NCBI GenBank assembly: GCA_046761065.1
Contig: JBHIFL010000080.1
Location: 1 to 18,142 of the forward strand
Length of the DNA: 18,142 bases
Reading direction: 5' to 3'
Origin: Candidatus Heimdallarchaeota archaeon
GTDB taxonomy: Archaea; Asgardarchaeota; Wukongarchaeia; Wukongarchaeales; JBHIFL01
Each line of letters opens with the position of its first letter. Position 1 is the first letter of the stretch. The position numbers and the translations under genes are program-made. The notes below the pieces were generated by a model. It searched no databases. It worked only from the letters and a program-made list of their open reading frames with translations, and was not told the DNA's origin. Below are positions 3,547-17,208 of this stretch, in pieces.

Positions 3547-4796
3547 TCAAGTTCCAAGATCAGGTACCTCAATTCTCGTGGGGTCACTTACGACGCGGTA
3601 GTATATAATGGCACCTACGAGAATCATTGCTCCCAAAGATAGCCCTACAAACTCATAATCCCACAATAGTAACATCCAGCCTCCTATACCTGCTCCAAGC
3701 GCTGAGCCTATATTAGCGGCCACAGAATTCAATGACATCATGGTACCCCTGAAGTTTGGCACTTGTTCCAGTGTTAAACTATATGCCGTAGTAATCATCA
3801 TGCCGAAAAACAAACAACTTAGGTACTCAAGAGCTATGGACAGCCAAAGATTGGGCACGTTCGTAAAAGAACACATGAAAATGCCAGTGATGAAGCCCGT
3901 TAAGATCGTTACTAGCTTCCTCCCAAACTGGGTTACAAATTGACCGATAACTAAGGTTCCGATTGTAAAGGATAAGGCGGCACCTACGAATATAATGGAC
4001 GCGAACTCTGTAGATACTGGAAAGTGTTCCCTGTAAAATGATGTACTGTAGACCAGAATAACCTGAAATCCGGCCATTGCAAGTGCATTACCTACAAAAC
4101 AAGCAATCGCTGACCAGTTGGCGAAGACGCCTTTAAATGCCTCCAAATACTTCCCTTTGCTCTCCGGGGGTTGATTGCCCCGGTGTTGAGAGGAAGAGGG
4201 CACCCCTTGAACCGCCATCAAGAAACCTAGGAGCGACACGGGGAGACGATTCCAAGGAATGCCCAGTGCCATCCTTCCTCCCCTCCTACTCCGGCGATAA
4301 AACCAATTATTGGTGCTCCAATCACGTATGCTAGGGATGCGCTGGCATTAACCGATCCAATTGTACTTGCTCGCTTCTCAAGAGGGAAATGAGCTCCAAT
4401 TAGTGCAAAAATCATTGGTGTGACCATAGCCATCCCTAATCCAGTTATAGAAAAAGTTATGAGCATCATATTGAAATTCAAAGCAAATGAGCAACCTAAA
4501 GCAGAGATGCAGAAGAATAAAAGCCCCGACAAGAGTAACGATTTATGTTGGTACCGAACACTCAATACCCCCATGAATAAAGCAGCGATAGCTGCGATAA
4601 ATGCAGCTGCAGTTTGAAGCTGGCCTGTTACGCCGACTGGATGGTCAAAAGTGTTACCGATGTCGATGAGAAGTAGTCCTGTTAGAATGAATGGGGGCTG
4701 TATTGCAACGTTAGATATGGCCAGTGAGGGAAGGAGAAGCCGTCTGGGTGAATGATTTTCTTCAGTAAGCCGTAAATTATCGTTCAATTTTACCAC
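3547..4796 (-). pseudogene. MFS transporter split by a 1-nt frameshift (or sequencing error)
   Basis: ORF 4227..4796 has the N-half TM helices ('G...WHWAFLG'). ORF 3547..4272 has the C-half ('QFGRK', 'VPNFRGTMMSLNS'). Restoring one base near 4245 gives ...FLGIVLPVSLLGFLMA... and a single protein of about 416 aa. Confidence 0.85.
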
Positions 4797-4957: not shown

Positions 4958-6295
4958 ATGACCGATAATTACTTCAAGCAATATAATCACTTGCCAGAGG
5001 CGTTACAAGAGGGTATCAATCCTGATGAGCACATCATTGGGATCTATATGGTACAACTACCCTCCCGGATGGATCCTTGGCTTATTGGCCATGCAATCGC
5101 GCAGGAACAAAGTACGGGGACGTGGGTACCTGTTCCCGAGAATACACCCGAACTGATGGCTACATATGGGGCGAAGGTCATTGGGGTTTATGAAGTCCCA
5201 AGCTATGAATATGAAGTTCCAAAAGAGGTTCATGAACGCAATTATATCTTTCAAGTAGCCTTTCCGATATGTAATCAAACAGATCAAATCCCTCTCATGC
5301 TTACAGCCATAATAGGGAACATTTCAATGGGGGGGAAACTCAAACTCTTAGATATTCGCTTCCCCAGAAAATGGTTGAAAACCTTCAAAGGTCCTAAGTT
5401 TGGGATCGAGGGCATTCGAAAGCTGCTCAAAGTTCCAGATCGCCCCTTGCTTAACAACATGATTAAACCTTGTTCCGGTTGGACTCCCGAACAAGGCGCG
5501 CAACTATTCTATCGCGCAGCGGTAGGGGGGTGCGATGTGGTTAAAGATGATGAACTAATCGCGAACATGGATTATTGTCAGATTGTTGATCGTGTTACAT
5601 TGTTTATGGAGGAAGTTGATCGTGCGCGAGATGAAAAGGGGGAGGAAACCCTCTATACTGTTAATATAACGGATCGAATACCTAAGTTAAAGGAAAACGC
5701 ATATGCTGTTCAAGAAGCGGGGGGCAATGCGCTCATGGTGAATTACCTGGTTATTGGACTTTCAGCTCTTCGCTGGTTAGCTGAAGACCCAGAACTCAAA
5801 CTGCCTATCCTTGCACACATGGATTTCGCGGGGGTTTGGTATATGTCTCCTTATCACGGGGTCTCGTCTTTCTTAACTTTAGGAAAATTGGCACGGATTG
5901 CTGGATCGGACATCGTAGTTTATCCAGCCCCGTATGGGAAAGCACCTAATCTTGAAATGAACTTCAAAGCAGTTGCGAAAGCCATGCGGTATCGGATGTA
6001 TCATTTGAAGCCGACATTACCTATGCCGAGTGGAGGCATAACACCGGGAATGGTGCCTCGGGTTATACGTGATCTAGGCAATGATATCATGATTGGATCC
6101 GGCGGAGGAATCCATGCTCACCCTGATGGCCCCATTGCTGGAGCTAAAGCGTTTCGACAAGCAATAGATATTTGTATGAAAGACTTAGCTGCTGCGTTGG
6201 ATGATTTTGATGATTATGTTGAGGAACATGAAGACGAATATCCTGAGTTAGCAAAAGCCATGGAGGAGTGGGGTCTCAAAGAAACCAAGTTTTAA
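4958..6295 (+). CDS. RuBisCO-like protein (form IV RLP)
   Basis: Retains 'EQSTGTW', 'GN', 'GPKFGIEG', 'KDDE', loop-6 'YGK', 'PSGG' and 'GGGIHAHPDG'. KPK becomes KPC, HR becomes HM and the H327 position is not His, so it is not a form I-III carboxylase. ATG 4958 directly follows GTG 4955. Confidence 0.92.
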   Translation: MTDNYFKQYNHLPEALQEGINPDEHIIGIYMVQLPSRMDPWLIGHAIAQEQSTGTWVPVPENTPELMATYGAKVIGVYEVPSYEYEVPKEVHERNYIFQVAFPICNQTDQIPLMLTAIIGNISMGGKLKLLDIRFPRKWLKTFKGPKFGIEGIRKLLKVPDRPLLNNMIKPCSGWTPEQGAQLFYRAAVGGCDVVKDDELIANMDYCQIVDRVTLFMEEVDRARDEKGEETLYTVNITDRIPKLKENAYAVQEAGGNALMVNYLVIGLSALRWLAEDPELKLPILAHMDFAGVWYMSPYHGVSSFLTLGKLARIAGSDIVVYPAPYGKAPNLEMNFKAVAKAMRYRMYHLKPTLPMPSGGITPGMVPRVIRDLGNDIMIGSGGGIHAHPDGPIAGAKAFRQAIDICMKDLAAALDDFDDYVEEHEDEYPELAKAMEEWGLKETKF

Positions 6296-6485
6296 TTCCA
6301 TTTGGCTTCATTTTTCAGTAAGATGAACGAGGAGGAAAAGTACTAAAACGAAAGAAAAGATAAGAAATAGTGATCGTTCTTAAAGGAATGCATTCTTAAA
6401 CGCTTCAATAAAACCTCATATTTATTTAGTCATCTACATCAATCATCCGATCTATGAGAAGTATTGTTGGTAAATAAGTGGAAGG

Positions 6486-6505
6486 TGAATTTGAACATAA
6501 ATTCA
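6486..6505. promoter_or_regulatory. Inverted repeat TGAATTT-N6-AAATTCA, possible transcription-factor site upstream of the 6527 gene
   Basis: Perfect 7-bp arms, about 20 nt upstream of the ATG and just before a GAGGT RBS. Confidence 0.3.
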
Positions 6506-6526
6506 GTCTGTTTATGAGGTAAACAC

Positions 6527-7138
6527 ATGAGTGCTGGAAGAATAATTGGAATAGCAACGTTATTTTCCCTTATTTGCATTATTATACTATCTGCCTACGG
6601 ATATTTTGCTTATGCTCCTGTTCCAATACTTGTTGGAACATTTTTTGTCGGGTTCGTTACAAAAGAAGTTAAAGGTGGTGCTATTATAGGCATTATTACA
6701 GCCATTAGTGTGCTGATAGTCTTAGGTATTATTTTCTCCGTGCTTTTCTTTTTAGCTATAATTGTTGGTGTCCTCGCATTTTTGATTTGGCCATTGTTTT
6801 CAGCAGTAACTACGATCATGGAATTGGTGGAGATTATTTTTATCACACTAGCTTATTCTATCATTTTTAGTCCAGTTATGGGTTCAATTGGGGGATTCGT
6901 TGGAAGATTGTTCTTTAGTATAGATGAGCAACAGGCTTCTTTAACCCGAATCCCGACGACTCAAGCCCCGCCAACTCGAGCTCCACCAACTAAGGCACCT
7001 ACAAAATCCCAATTCCCTCCAGGCTTTGAAAACCTTTCTCACATCAAGCCTCCTAATACTATTAGTTGTCCTTCGTGTGGAACTCTAAATTACCCAAACT
7101 CTAACTTTTGTAAGAACTGTGGAACTCGTTTACAATAA
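6527..7138 (+). CDS. Multi-pass membrane protein with Pro/Thr-rich linker and C-terminal zinc ribbon
   Basis: About 4-5 hydrophobic segments in the first ~130 aa, then a PPT-rich linker, then 'CPSCG...NFCKNCG' (2x CxxC). GAGGT RBS upstream. Confidence 0.85.
   Translation: MSAGRIIGIATLFSLICIIILSAYGYFAYAPVPILVGTFFVGFVTKEVKGGAIIGIITAISVLIVLGIIFSVLFFLAIIVGVLAFLIWPLFSAVTTIMELVEIIFITLAYSIIFSPVMGSIGGFVGRLFFSIDEQQASLTRIPTTQAPPTRAPPTKAPTKSQFPPGFENLSHIKPPNTISCPSCGTLNYPNSNFCKNCGTRLQ
6953..7006 (+). repeat. Imperfect 15-bp coding tandem repeat (xAPPT units)
   Basis: Encodes PTTQAPPTRAPPTKAPTK; DNA units caagccccgccaact / cgagctccaccaact / aaggcacctaca. Confidence 0.6.
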
Positions 7139-12398: not shown

Positions 12399-12700
12399 GG
12401 GTTCAATGCCCTGATTCCTCTAAAAGACTTTAGTTTTCTGATACTTCAAAAAGTTTTTGAATTACAGAGGCGCAAGGATGTCCTATAATGAGAATAACAG
12501 TGAAATCATAAATATATCTGAAAAGAACAACGAGTGATTAGGTAAATTCTCTCACAAAAAATTGTATTAAAATTAAAACATGAACTACTTCATGCACAAA
12601 CTCAGGAATCTTTGGAGTTGTACTGTCATATTGGGTTTTCACTATGAGTTTGGTTACGTTTTTTAACAAGTTTCTATCTTCCACTGAATGGGTGCCATTA

Positions 12701-13288
12701 ATGGCCAAAATATTTCATGTTGTAAAAGGTGATCTACAAGAGGAAAATACCTCAGAATTTTATAATGGAGATGTCTACATCGTCGATGCAGGAATGAAAA
12801 TTTGGGTCTGGACAGGCTCAAAAAGCAGCGTAGATGAAAAATTCGCAGGAGCGTTCATCAGTAAGCAGATGGATCTAGAGCGAAGAGATTATCCCAAGCT
12901 ACTGCATATCGAAGAAGGTACTGAATCGCCAGAATTTCTTGCCCTCTTACCTGGAGCGTTGCAGATACGAGAAGGAGGGGAAACCGGCATTTTAGTACCA
13001 CCACCAGAGCAACCCAAACCCAAACCCAAACTATACAGAATAGACAGCGAGTCGGGGCGAACCTATGAAGTTCCTCTTAGCAGGGGATCATTAGATGGAG
13101 AAGACAGTTTCGTGTTAGATGCGGGGATGAAAATCTGGGTCTGGCGAGGTTCTCAGTCTACCATGATGGAAAAATTCGATGCCGCGAAACTGGGCCGCGA
13201 TTTAGATGCCGCAAGAGCATATGAACCCGATACAGAAGTCATTGAAGAAGGAAATGAACCTCCCCAATTTTGGAAACATTTTGAATAG
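12701..13288 (+). CDS. Two-domain gelsolin-like protein (Asgard 2DGel type)
   Basis: Two gelsolin repeats: 'FYNGDVYIVD...IWVWTGSKSSVDEKFAGA...IEEGTESPEF' and 'LDGEDSFVLD...IWVWRGSQSTMMEKFDAA...IEEGNEPPQFW'. ATG 12701 has a GGTG RBS (the ORF track starts at 12644). Confidence 0.92.
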   Translation: MAKIFHVVKGDLQEENTSEFYNGDVYIVDAGMKIWVWTGSKSSVDEKFAGAFISKQMDLERRDYPKLLHIEEGTESPEFLALLPGALQIREGGETGILVPPPEQPKPKPKLYRIDSESGRTYEVPLSRGSLDGEDSFVLDAGMKIWVWRGSQSTMMEKFDAAKLGRDLDAARAYEPDTEVIEEGNEPPQFWKHFE

Positions 13289-13500
13289 TCCAGTTTAACA
13301 GTTGAGTCCTTTTCTTGACGATGTTTTCTATCGTCCTCCCTTCTTTTTTGATTCAAGCAAATATTGAACTTAGAATATACAATGAGTTCTCCGAATAAAT
13401 GTTATTTATTTTTCATAAATAAAAAGATAAATACATAAAATTAGTGGAAAAAAAGTGGAGTGAAGGTGATTTGAGTAATCATCCTCAAAAGGCGATAAAA

Positions 13501-14055
13501 ATGTCTTTTGGCTCAGCGACGACGTATGATTATCTATTTAAGGTTATTGTTGTTGGAGATGGCGCCGTTGGTAAAACAGCATTATCATTTAGATTTGATA
13601 CAGGGAAGTTCGAGCAAAGCTACAAGATGACTATCGGCGCTGATTTCTTCGTGAAGATAATCGAAGTCGAGGCCCGAGGGATGAAACACCGAGTCAAACT
13701 GCAGATCTGGGATACCGCAGGGCAAGAACGATTTGGTTCAATCAGACCTTTATATTATCGCGGAGCGAACGGCGGATTTGTTGTTTTTGATGTGACGAAC
13801 CGAAAATCCTTTATCAATTTAGAAAAGAAATGGTTCAACGAAGTATACCAATATTGTGGACATATCCCTCTTATTTTGTTAGGAAACAAAATAGACTTAG
13901 AAGAATTACGGGCTGTATCTATGAATGAAGGTCAAGAAATAGCTACGGAACAGGAACTACAATTTTTTGAAACAAGCGCCAAGACTGGTCAAAATGTAGA
14001 TAAAGCCTTTTTAAACCTTGGAGAACGCCTTTTAGAAAAGGCAAAAAAGGTTTGA
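13501..14055 (+). CDS. Rab-like small GTPase (Ras superfamily)
   Basis: G1 GDGAVGKT, G2 T, G3 DTAGQE, G4 NKID, G5 ETSAK. RabF-like motifs IGADF, KLQIW, RFGSI, YYRGA, VVFDVT, plus N-terminal YDYLFK. Start uncertain (13444 GTG, 13471 TTG or 13501 ATG). Confidence 0.95.
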   Translation: MSFGSATTYDYLFKVIVVGDGAVGKTALSFRFDTGKFEQSYKMTIGADFFVKIIEVEARGMKHRVKLQIWDTAGQERFGSIRPLYYRGANGGFVVFDVTNRKSFINLEKKWFNEVYQYCGHIPLILLGNKIDLEELRAVSMNEGQEIATEQELQFFETSAKTGQNVDKAFLNLGERLLEKAKKV

Positions 14056-14359
14056 ACAGCTAATTTTAGCTAATAGCATCGAATATGATCATGTTTAGAA
14101 GTAAGTTGTTATATTTCACAGTATGGATATTTGGGGTTTATGTGTAGTAAAGTCGTCTAATTGCTCCTATCACAATGTGGACCACAGTAGATAGGTCCCC
14201 AATCAATTTTACTTAACATTTTATTTCGATGACGTGTCCCAATGGTTCCTTTGGGGATCCAACATCTTTGAAATCCTAGATAGTCTTTATTACGAGAAAA
14301 TATTACAAAAAGTTTATCTAGTTCATTCCACTGAATCAGTAACTAGTGAAGTAAATGGG

Positions 14360-14734
14360 ATGAATTTTTTGGTAAAAAAAGCCTTCGAAGAACGAGTTAA
14401 AGAAACGACAAAAAAAGCGTCTAAAGTTATTAAACGCCTTCCGGACGAAATGAAACCTCGAGCAAAAGAAACTCTGACTGAATTCACTCAGGAGCTTGAG
14501 CAGCTATATAAATTCCTTGTGATCACTGATAAAGACGTTGAAGGGCTTGTCGTAGAGACTCGCAAAGTAACTTTGGAAGAAAAAAACATGGAAACACTCA
14601 AACGTATCTGTGATATTCTCTATAATACCTATGTCAAGATGGGGAAAAAAGAAGCAGCAAACGAATGGAAAAAAAAGGCCGAAGCAATAGATCAGTCGGG
14701 ATCAAGAGTCAATCAAGTGAATACGCATTTGTAG
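14360..14734 (+). CDS. Hypothetical all-helical charged protein with a TPR-like C-terminal hairpin
   Basis: K/E-rich helical sequence starting MNFLVKKAFEERV; 'LYNTYVKMGKKEAANEWKKKA' resembles a TPR helix pair. The GTG 14234 extension looks non-coding. Confidence 0.7.
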   Translation: MNFLVKKAFEERVKETTKKASKVIKRLPDEMKPRAKETLTEFTQELEQLYKFLVITDKDVEGLVVETRKVTLEEKNMETLKRICDILYNTYVKMGKKEAANEWKKKAEAIDQSGSRVNQVNTHL

Positions 14735-14866
14735 GATAATCCTCTCTAAATAGGATGGGAGTTGTTACTGATAAAAAGTTAGTATTAATTCCATCAGGGC
14801 CAAAAAAAGAGTTTCCATTGAGCACCGTTTGAACAATCGATTCTTATTGTCTTTTGAATTGTAATA

Positions 14867-14894
14867 TTTATATAAGATTCCTGACTAAAGTCAG
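14867..14894 (+). promoter_or_regulatory. Putative TATA box (TTTATATA) followed by a 14-bp palindrome CTGACT-AA-AGTCAG
   Basis: TATA at 14867-14874, palindrome at 14881-14894, GGAGG RBS at 14934-14938, ATG at 14945. Confidence 0.5.
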
Positions 14895-14944
14895 TTAATC
14901 CTGTCGCTGTCATTTAAGGTGATTTTTCTTCTTGGAGGCGTCCT

Positions 14945-16438
14945 ATGCTGATTACAGTTTCTACAGGATGTGATTCACTAGATCTATTATTAGGAGGAGG
15001 GTTCCAAGAAGGTAGCGCCACTTTGATTCGCGGAGGAGCAGGAACTGGCAAGACGACTCTTGCTGTACAATTTCTTGTTGAAGGGGCTAATGTCAATAAT
15101 GAGGTAGGACTTTATATTATATGTGAAGAAGATCCTCTCCGAATGCTGGGCCAGTTTGATAAACTTAAACTTGGTGATTTAGTAAAAAAAGGTCAAATAA
15201 TCATCTTAGATCTGGCACAAGCGCGAATTGGTGTGACTCGAAACTATCTCTCTCCAAATATTGTTCATTGTCCTGAAGCGGACTTAAATCCAGCATTACT
15301 CTACATATTTGAACTTATTGAGGAGAAAAAAATTAAAAGAGTGGTATTGGATAGTATTGAGGCTTTTATGACATTTGCAATTAGAGAAGTTATTCCAACC
15401 CGCGATGTTTTATTCCGAATTATCGAATATTGCCGAAGAGAAGGAGTTACATCTCTACTTATTTCTGAAAAACAGGAAAAAACCAATCAATTACGCGCTG
15501 AACCTTTTGAAGAACATATGGTTGATGGTGTCATTATTTTAGGAAGAGAATTCATAGGAAAAGAAGCTACTCGTACTCTACAAATCCAAAAGATGCGAGG
15601 TAGCGAGCATGATTCCAGAATTCACCCTATTAGAATTACAGATTCTGGTATTGAGCTGATCTTACCAAGGATTAGGAAACCGAGAAGAAAAACTACTAGT
15701 AAAACCGTATTCGGGATGCAAGACTTAGATGCCTTTTTACCTATGTCTCAAGAAGGTATTATCCTTCTTGAGACAGATTCCCAGAGTTTCCACTGGCGCT
15801 CTCTTGTTATTAAGTTCATGCACGAAGGATTTAGAAATAATGAACCAATCATCTACCTCATCTCGGGAAAAGAATCGCGACAGATAGCTGAAGAATTTCT
15901 TGAGAATATGAAATCTTCGAGAGAACGAGAAAAAGTACATGAAACTCGCTATTTAACTATTATCGATGCACTTAGAAATAGTAGGTATCAAGAGTTAATT
16001 AAATCCACTGGGAGTCCTGATTATGTGCGATACCTTAACACAAAAATCCCACATGATCTTCAAAGCAATTATAAACTCATTCTCAGCATTGAAAAAGATC
16101 TTCGAGATCAATACCGATTTTCGAAAGAGTCAAACTTGCTTAGGGAAGTGGAAATCCTTTCAGAACGTGCACTTGAATTAGGTGAGACTAATTTACTCCG
16201 GTATTTAAATAGTTATTATTTTCAGCTGCTTTCTCGCCGCTTACTTTGTCTTGGGATACTTAATACCGAGATCCATAGCTCAAAATTCACTAAGACGATC
16301 GAATTCTTAGCAGATGTCATTATCCAGACGAGGAATAAAGAAGGTCAGGATCTTATTCAGGTAATCAAATCGCCTTGGGGACAGTCCCGACTCTTTGTCA
16401 TGGGTTCTACTGCAGAGGCCTTATTGAAACCTATTTAA
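14945..16438 (+). CDS. KaiC/RAD55-like RecA-fold ATPase with an intact N-terminal and a degenerate C-terminal domain
   Basis: N domain: 'STG...LDLLLGGG', Walker A GGAGTGKT, catalytic EE, Walker B RVVLDS, 'DGVIIL', Arg finger KMRG. C domain: 'FGMQDLDAFL' and 'FLADVIIQ', but no Walker A and KSP in place of KxR. Confidence 0.88.
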   Translation: MLITVSTGCDSLDLLLGGGFQEGSATLIRGGAGTGKTTLAVQFLVEGANVNNEVGLYIICEEDPLRMLGQFDKLKLGDLVKKGQIIILDLAQARIGVTRNYLSPNIVHCPEADLNPALLYIFELIEEKKIKRVVLDSIEAFMTFAIREVIPTRDVLFRIIEYCRREGVTSLLISEKQEKTNQLRAEPFEEHMVDGVIILGREFIGKEATRTLQIQKMRGSEHDSRIHPIRITDSGIELILPRIRKPRRKTTSKTVFGMQDLDAFLPMSQEGIILLETDSQSFHWRSLVIKFMHEGFRNNEPIIYLISGKESRQIAEEFLENMKSSREREKVHETRYLTIIDALRNSRYQELIKSTGSPDYVRYLNTKIPHDLQSNYKLILSIEKDLRDQYRFSKESNLLREVEILSERALELGETNLLRYLNSYYFQLLSRRLLCLGILNTEIHSSKFTKTIEFLADVIIQTRNKEGQDLIQVIKSPWGQSRLFVMGSTAEALLKPI

Positions 16439-16695
16439 TTTTCAATTAGAAGAAGCACTGTTATTACTAATCATGAAGCTTTGAATCATGTAAAAAATGG
16501 AGTAAGATATCAGTATATATGATTTTTTTCATTTATCATTGAATTCCCTTTATATACACCAACCATTTTACTGCGACTTTGCATTGTCCCAAGAGTATTA
16601 AATACAATTGCCTTCTCTTAAATTGGAGAAAAGTTTACCTGAGCGACCTCTTATAGGAAAAGAAACATTATTGACATAAAAGGTGGATACATCCA

Positions 16696-17208
16696 TTGCT
16701 GGATATGAATCGTCTAGAAAGGACGACTTCTGAGCTAATCCATGCGATATCAAGATTAACGGCTCGAATCGGAAAAATTCAGAAAATTGACATGAATTTC
16801 GAGGGCCTAGCCATCGTTTCTTTTACAAAGGAAGAAGGTGTTGCCTCTCCCATACAAATTTGTGAGACTTTAGAACGTTCAAAGGGCGCTATTGGGGCGC
16901 TAGAATGTTTAGACAGTGTTACAGTACAGATGATCATGGAAATAGACGAAATTCCCGCTCATGTAGGTGTTGAAATCCCCTTTCCTCCTGTGGATAGTCC
17001 AACATTACTCTATGTAGATGCTCCGCAATTAGGGTTTTCAATAGCTAGTCATCGGGTGCTATTTATGCTCTATGAGGCTTTACACATGCCTCGGGCCTTG
17101 ATTCCTCCCCCAACTGAGAAGCCAGGCTCCGATGCAGTACATCTTTTAGAATGTCTTCTTCAAAAGGCAAGAACTTTTAAAGGATCAGAGATGGGTATTA
17201 AAAATTGA
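16696..17208 (+). CDS. Hypothetical protein, possibly longin/uDENN-like fold
   Basis: AGGTGG RBS upstream. 'GLAIVSFTKEEG' resembles the hhhhxFxxxxG start of uDENN/longin domains, followed by an apparent beta-beta-alpha-beta-beta-beta-alpha pattern. The CDS is likely real; the fold call is tentative. Confidence 0.55.
   Translation: MLDMNRLERTTSELIHAISRLTARIGKIQKIDMNFEGLAIVSFTKEEGVASPIQICETLERSKGAIGALECLDSVTVQMIMEIDEIPAHVGVEIPFPPVDSPTLLYVDAPQLGFSIASHRVLFMLYEALHMPRALIPPPTEKPGSDAVHLLECLLQKARTFKGSEMGIKN

Follow-up and report, generated by a model that had tools for sequence, protein, structure and literature searches.

A Rab-like GTPase gene and a KaiC-like ATPase gene in an Asgard archaeal contig: a probable variant, loose and lineage-specific, of a recurrent neighbourhood

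The window analysed here is the whole of contig JBHIFL010000080.1 (C80), 18,142 bp, from the genome of Candidatus Heimdallarchaeota archaeon (G000; 4.4 Mb in 234 contigs). Its gene content is of the Asgard type. Between 12.6 and 17.2 kb there are five successive genes on the + strand, which encode a two-domain gelsolin, a Rab-like small GTPase, a small orphan protein named hel, a KaiC-like ATPase, and a second orphan named ORF5. The window shows a variant, loose in its arrangement and specific to its lineage, of a pairing between GTPase and KaiC-family genes that recurs in Asgard archaea. The support for this pairing is real but moderate. The gelsolin next to the GTPase is very probably there by accident of gene order.

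Genes and promoter-like boxes of the five-gene run

An earlier note on this DNA had described five co-oriented genes, with the gelsolin directly before the Rab-like GTPase, and the open reading frames (ORFs) and domain matches bear this out (Table 1). No credible gene on the - strand was found within the run when the ORFs were inspected. Purifying selection is seen on every gene for which it was measurable, with ratios of nonsynonymous to synonymous substitution (dN/dS) of 0.08–0.23 against close relatives; for the gelsolin, the ratio was measurable against the relative L044 alone, where dS is saturated. An Rfam scan of the window gave no match. Elsewhere in the window, on the - strand at 3547–4796, there are two overlapping ORFs of 241 and 189 amino acids, each with a match to MFS_1, which give the impression of a single transporter gene that a frameshift or a small insert has broken.

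Table 1. Positions of the genes, domains and promoter-like boxes along the five-gene run (BRE, B recognition element; aa, amino acids).
Feature	Position	Strand	Remarks
Two-domain gelsolin (2DGel type)	12701..13288	+	alternative start 12644 (+19 residues)
BRE/TATA-like box TCATAAATAAAAAGATAAATAC upstream of GTPase gene	13411..13434	+	conserved in window, L041, L058, L044
Rab-like small GTPase, 184 aa, C-terminal cysteine absent	13501..14055	+	PF00071 E 8.6e-58
BRE/TATA-like box ATTACAAAAAGTTTATC, ~45 nt upstream of hel	14302..14318	+	at most 1 mismatch across four lineages
hel, 124-aa lysine/glutamate-rich orphan, presumed helical	14360..14734	+	start from stop codons of relatives
TATA box TTTATATAAGATT upstream of KaiC-like gene	14867..14879	+	conserved in window, L041, L058; similar in L044
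KaiC-like ATPase, N-terminal domain	14945..15691	+	Walker A GGAGTGKT, EE pair, Walker B VVLDS
KaiC-like ATPase, degenerate KaiC-like (iKaiC/MEDS-like) C-half without P-loop	15692..16438	+	
BRE/TATA-like box AGAAAAGTTTACC upstream of ORF5	16627..16639	+	conserved in four lineages
ORF5, 170-aa alpha/beta orphan, TTG start	16696..17208	+	AAGGTGG at 16680 precedes start

The closest solved relatives of the GTPase are Rab10 (E 1.5e-47), a Thorarchaeota Rab (E 3.4e-46; PDB 7ezb; PMC10933270), Rab43, Rab8, and Rab1, and the Thorarchaeota structure is a clear sequence relative. All of the G1 to G5 motifs are conserved, as GDGAVGKT, the switch I T, WDTAGQE, GNKIDL, and ETSAK. Read by eye, the five RabF motifs are present as IGADF, KLQIW, RFGSIR, YYRGA, and VVFDVT, with F1, F2, and F4 near-exact and F3 and F5 approximate. 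The C-terminus reads LLEKAKKV and does not contain the cysteine motif for geranylgeranylation, nor was a C-terminal cysteine found in any orthologue. The protein should therefore be seen as Rab-like, rather than as a bona fide Rab.

Residues 5–239 of the ATPase match the KaiC family PF06745 (E 1.2e-51, 175.8 bits against a cut-off of 26.6). The equivalog level for KaiC in NCBIfam is not reached (152.8 bits against a cut-off of 408) and the second Walker A is lost, so that the protein does not qualify as a clock KaiC. The motifs of the N-terminal domain are intact; in the C-half, ETDSQSFHWRS occupies the Walker A position. Three of the four orthologues have weak MEDS matches in the C-half, below threshold (best E 5e-4). 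The C-half also has a weak collinear hhalign match to its own N-half (E 0.12) and, in another genome (G037), matches the C-half of a protein that is double KaiC-like and bears DUF7090 (E 3.8e-4). The AlphaFold2 (AF2) model of the C-half has a confidence score (pLDDT) of 40, too poor for fold comparison. From these weak but consistent matches the C-half is read as a putative inactivated KaiC-like domain, its fold inferred, fused to a live KaiC domain, which places the protein with the archaeal KaiC-like ATPases that carry an inactivated KaiC (iKaiC)/MEDS-like domain. A paralogue of equal two-domain length (509 amino acids) is found in the same genome at the start of contig C3 (175–1704).

The other two genes of the run are lineage-specific orphans. 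In the relatives L058 and L044, stop codons interrupt a 42-codon extension of hel that would begin at 14234, so that the gene starts at 14360 and encodes 124 rather than 166 amino acids. It has no Pfam match above the cut-off, and no homologue was found in 40 related genomes. The same 40 genomes gave no ORF5, and a profile scan of the species-genome collection was likewise negative. There are only 5 protein clusters in the ORF5 family among 5.8 billion proteins. A profile scan of metagenome contigs found it on 3 short contigs, all from its own lineage. Two repetitive proteins that matched the profile among 1.84 billion representative proteins are spurious, the match being through a proline-rich stretch. 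Against close relatives dN/dS is 0.12–0.21 for hel and 0.08–0.09 for ORF5, the latter showing the strongest constraint among the genes of the cluster. Values in this range, 0.08–0.21, indicate that both are real coding genes.

The spacers along the run are 212, 304, 210, and 257 nt, in agreement with the 200–300 nt or so of the earlier note, which had also cautioned that the genes are not necessarily one operon. The conserved promoter-like boxes and the long spacers justify that caution. A single operon is not indicated, with spacers of 212–304 nt, with boxes before the GTPase, hel, KaiC-like, and ORF5 genes, and with a T-rich tract 3' of the gelsolin stop codon. A common operator, in the form of a AAAAGTTT-type box before the gelsolin, hel, and ORF5 genes, was considered and rejected, the gelsolin copy not being conserved in L041 and the word not being enriched genome-wide. 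These boxes are treated as ordinary promoter boxes.

Recurrence of GTPase genes beside KaiC-family genes

The GTPase and KaiC-like genes of the window are separated by 890 nt. Adjacency was scored where a Ras-family (PF00071) gene lies within 1.5 kb of a KaiC-family (PF06745) gene. In the genome of the window, 4 out of 12 PF06745 loci are this close to one of the 34 PF00071 genes, where 0.36 would be expected (P 0.0002), and when C80 is excluded the figure is 3 out of 11 (P 0.003). One of the four loci, a KaiC-family match beside a Ras gene (C1:29970), is RadA and was dropped from the count. Once this and the weak matches are removed, the clear KaiC-like loci number seven, of which three (C80, C51, and C96) are adjacent to a GTPase gene, against an expectation of about 0.2. 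A binomial estimate, with the per-locus rate taken from random placement, gives P ~0.001 for these three loci and ~0.01 without C80.

The KaiC gene on contig C51 has as its neighbours a Rag-like gene, two genes of the Ras-like type, and the gene for a V4R protein. This cluster (4484–18160; L079) runs from a Rag-like GTPase of 465 amino acids through a Ras protein of 191, the KaiC of 255, and a 445 amino acid protein of no stated family, to a V4R-domain protein of 475 and a Ras-like protein of 320, and continues with more Ras-family matches.

Pairs are also found in four further families, with differing gene orders and a co-oriented spacing of 89–374 nt. In f6, seen in four genomes, a Rab gene is divergent from a Roadblock gene, a KaiB/thioredoxin-like gene, a KaiC gene, and a second KaiC gene. 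In this run (L076:297–2515, with L086, L089, and L090 equivalent), the thioredoxin/KaiB-like gene encodes 93 amino acids and matches KaiB at E 1.8e-5, below the cut-off; the run looks like a KaiB-KaiC-like set beside a GTPase and its likely regulator. In f10, a Roadblock gene is divergent from genes for a Rab, a KaiC, and a degenerate KaiC. Two arrangements are found in f16, one of KaiC, Rab, a 401 amino acid protein of unknown type, and KaiC, and the other of Rab, KaiC, and a KaiC-receiver fusion. The fusion follows the Rab-KaiC pair at L081:7144–8454 and L084:1158–2468, and is a KaiC-like P-loop protein of 436 amino acids with, by eye, a CheY-like receiver at its C-terminus. Fusions of KaiC with a receiver have been reported from six genera of the Methanosarcinaceae only (PMC5847659). 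In f18, a double KaiC (KaiC2), a KaiC, and a Rab are together, and both TackOD1 proteins and a Rag-like GTPase are encoded in the vicinity. A neighbourhood of a Rab-like GTPase and a KaiC-family ATPase is therefore found in the window, at C51 and C96, and in f6, f10, f16, and f18. The Rabs adjacent to KaiC are spread over several Rab subclades, which means that the linkage is either ancient or has arisen repeatedly.

This recurrence, in the same genome and in four families, suggests that the GTPase and the KaiC-like ATPase of the window belong together. In addition, the order and strand of the GTPase, hel, KaiC-like, and ORF5 genes are preserved in all of the relatives that were found. In L041, L042, L043, and L058, where ORF5 is about 90% identical, the order of all five genes is kept. 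In L044 the proteins are 54–75% identical, and the order and strand of these four genes are retained despite the saturation of synonymous sites. Another relative retains KaiC followed by ORF5. The explanation given most weight, with a probability of roughly 0.55, is that these are five separately promoted genes in which the functionally relevant part consists of the Rab-like GTPase and the KaiC-like ATPase, accompanied by hel and ORF5, and that this is a local variant of the recurrent Asgard neighbourhood. The tail-less GTPase would be a soluble switch, controlled or read by the KaiC-type ATPase, which may act as a nucleotide- or phosphorylation-dependent hub. hel and ORF5 could be adaptors or regulators that replace the Roadblock, KaiB-like, receiver, and TackOD1 proteins of other lineages.

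Several observations weigh against this explanation. The narrow clade is collinear over at least 12 genes around the cluster, so that the retention of the GTPase, hel, KaiC-like, and ORF5 genes within it is not specific evidence. The spacers of 210–305 nt, and the promoter-like box that each gene has to itself, speak against co-transcription. No KaiC was seen in the DNA examined around the nearest Rab relatives, either in the two genomes of the same order or in G020, G013, G005, and G012. In five fully scored genomes 4 out of 37 KaiC genes are adjacent to a Rab gene, and there are none in f13, f7, and f15. When previously recognised genomes are excluded, the enrichment is not significant (estimated P ~0.17). 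The profiles of hel and ORF5 show no similarity to the proteins that accompany Rab and KaiC at the other loci.

A rival explanation is that the five genes have no functional tie and are neighbours that have not yet been shuffled among close relatives, with the proximity of KaiC and GTPase genes elsewhere reflecting two large paralogous families in signalling-rich regions. The collinearity of the surrounding genes, the separate boxes, and the relatives of the same order that lack the pairing all fit this explanation, as do published accounts: eukaryote-like genes of Asgard archaea are mostly outside conserved neighbourhoods (bioRxiv 10.1101/2020.10.19.343400), and the same is true of the GTPase genes of strain MK-D1 (PMC10933270). 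Against it are the enrichment of KaiC-GTPase proximity in the window's own genome, which is significant even without C80, and the pairing in four further families in varied orders and at close co-oriented spacing, with known GTPase regulators (Roadblock) sharing those loci. Absence of any functional tie is possible, but is considered less likely than a true pairing of GTPase and KaiC-like ATPase.

The identity of ORF5 and the position of the gelsolin

The earlier note had labelled ORF5, with a hedge, as a possible longin/uDENN protein and had proposed it as a candidate guanine nucleotide exchange factor (GEF). This finds no support in searches of Pfam, NCBIfam, profiles, or folds. There is no match to Pfam or NCBIfam even at E 10, and in the fold searches with its AF2 model no longin or DENN chain is prominent. 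The model (pLDDT 63) has the topology a-b-b-a-b-b-b-a-a, a predicted arrangement that would follow the order of Roadblock and not that of longin; it begins with a helix, where a longin fold would be b-b-a-b-b-b-a(-a). A Foldseek search of the PDB with this model gave no match with an E value of 0.001 or lower. The VIA-wide search has a best Z of 6.2, to the mite allergen Der f 7, and the ESM Atlas gives TM-scores of at most 0.45, both within the range of noise. An Atlas feature search gave scores of at most 0.82, which is the level of chance.

ORF5 might alternatively be a strongly diverged regulator of the Roadblock/longin type, a platform for GTPase activation (GAP) or nucleotide exchange that serves the GTPase as the Roadblock proteins of f6 and f10 may do. 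The a-b-b-a-b-b-b-a order of the model is that of Roadblock/LC7, Roadblock genes hold comparable positions in the other lineages, and ORF5 is the most constrained gene of the cluster. Roadblock (PF03259) is found in 13 places in this genome, none of them on C80, and hhalign of ORF5 against ten of these Roadblock proteins gives a probability of 0.3%. With this result, the empty family searches, structural matches no better than that to the mite allergen, and a model pLDDT of just 63, such an identity is thought unlikely.

PF00626 matches the gelsolin in two stretches (E 1.3e-25), there is a full-length match to the solved Asgard 2DGel3 (7c2g; E 2.7e-35), and its other best solved relatives are also gelsolins. 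Having a pair of gelsolin-homology domains within some 200 residues, it belongs to the Asgard 2DGel type, and the 2DGel structures (PDB 7c2g, 7whg, and 7whf) are clear sequence relatives. Its homologues begin to align at about residue 20.

The earlier note had tentatively placed this gelsolin in a single unit with the Rab-like GTPase, an effector, a KaiC hub, and a GEF of the longin type, which would couple a GTPase switch to actin remodelling. In favour of this, the gelsolin adjoins the GTPase in every close relative, and random placement would put a single gelsolin gene within 500 nt of a Ras-family gene in only about 1.6% of cases. That figure applies to a prespecified pair, and this one was chosen post hoc from among many possible pairings of eukaryote-like genes. 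A coupling of GTPases to actin is also plausible in general, an Arf GTPase of Lokiarchaeum ossiferum having been co-purified with Lokiactin and gelsolins (PMC13716822).

The synteny of related genomes, which the earlier note had proposed as the check, does not show a conserved adjacency of gelsolin and Rab, and for this pair the result is one that the note itself had named among its refuting outcomes. In L044 the gelsolin gene is inverted. It is divergent from the GTPase gene and is 23 nt upstream of a bifunctional nuclease (BFN)-domain gene on the same strand, and the box TCATAAATAAAAAGATAAATAC before the GTPase gene is retained there, with the gelsolin upstream of it facing the other way. 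Flanks of 10 kb on each side of the two-domain gelsolin were inspected in 20 further genomes of the phylum, and neither a GTPase nor a KaiC, hel, or ORF5 gene adjoins it; the three Ras-like matches in this ~330 kb represent background density. A KaiC gene about 2 kb from a two-domain gelsolin in two f13 genomes is put down to chance, since it is from one lineage and at paralogue-level identity. Nor was a gelsolin found when the surroundings of the best Rab relatives were inspected in 11 genomes. There are also T-rich stretches after the gelsolin stop codon, and neither a longin nor a DENN identity could be demonstrated for ORF5. The link between GTPase and actin is thus not supported, and the unit as a whole is very unlikely. 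Of what was proposed, the GTPase and the KaiC-like ATPase stand as a plausible pair through their recurrence in the same genome and in four families, and the membership of the gelsolin falls. On the sequence comparisons made here, the gelsolin is judged to be a neighbour by chance that is outside the module, and presumably an ordinary Asgard actin regulator. That hel and ORF5 are new, lineage-specific regulators or effectors through which a soluble Rab-like switch is joined with a KaiC/iKaiC hub, in a circuit that also acts on the gelsolin, is likewise very improbable; if true, it would provide a prokaryotic path from GTPase to actin with parts unrelated to eukaryotic GEFs and GAPs.

Some further features of the gelsolin region were observed. 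In L044 the gelsolin and BFN genes are co-oriented at 5406–6583, which suggests a gelsolin-BFN transcription unit in that lineage. In the window, the divergent spacer between the BFN and gelsolin genes has a near-palindrome, TTCAAAAAGTTTTTGAA, at 12447–12463, which is partly kept in L041. The gelsolin gene of L041 is interrupted by a 29 nt insert bearing a stop codon (6142–6170), as are those of L042 and L043. The insert maps between positions 12880 and 12881 of the window and is not present in the window or in L044. Folded by hand, it forms a canonical bulge-helix-bulge, with an outer helix of AUGG:CCGU, a 4 bp helix of AUCU:GGAU, 3 nt bulges of AGA and AAA on opposite strands, and an inner hairpin of 9 bp. 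The distance from bulge to bulge is 29 nt, such that splicing would restore the gelsolin reading frame. The insert is probably an mRNA intron of the tRNA type, rather than the sign of a pseudogene.

Significance and comparison with known systems

Asgard archaea have dozens of Ras-superfamily GTPases, very few of whose partners are known, and a recurring KaiC neighbour is a concrete candidate partner. The pairing would bring a eukaryote-like switch into the KaiC signalling network of archaea. The chief value of the window is negative, in that the actin module is very probably accidental and that hel and ORF5 should not carry the labels of longin or GEF.

None of the papers searched joins KaiC, Asgard, GTPase, and Roadblock. 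Gene layout seldom helps in pairing Asgard GTPases with regulators, and in strain MK-D1 the GTPase genes are generally not in operons with their regulators (PMC10933270). The published work on 2DGel and on the Thorarchaeota Rab treats gelsolin and GTPase as unlinked genes, which agrees with the result for the gelsolin here.

An operon conserved among Asgard archaea has been described in which the genes for a LAMTOR1-like Roadblock protein, a Rab-like GTPase, and a protein with a DENN domain are grouped (bioRxiv 10.1101/2020.10.19.343400). The window resembles it in encoding a Rab-like GTPase beside candidate regulators. It differs in that the contig has no Roadblock gene, a KaiC-like ATPase being present instead, and in that the genes are loosely packed. 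A DENN search of the window's own genome gave no match, and control genomes were equally without matches.

Hubs of archaeal KaiC-like ATPases with iKaiC partners were described by Makarova, Galperin, and Koonin in 2017 (mBio), and the comparison made here is with that work as summarised in PMC5847659. By that summary, the likeness is in the joining of a live KaiC/RecA-type domain to a degenerate one and in the small lineage-specific proteins around it. The difference is that here, and in the four other families, the steady neighbour is a eukaryote-like GTPase of the Rab type.

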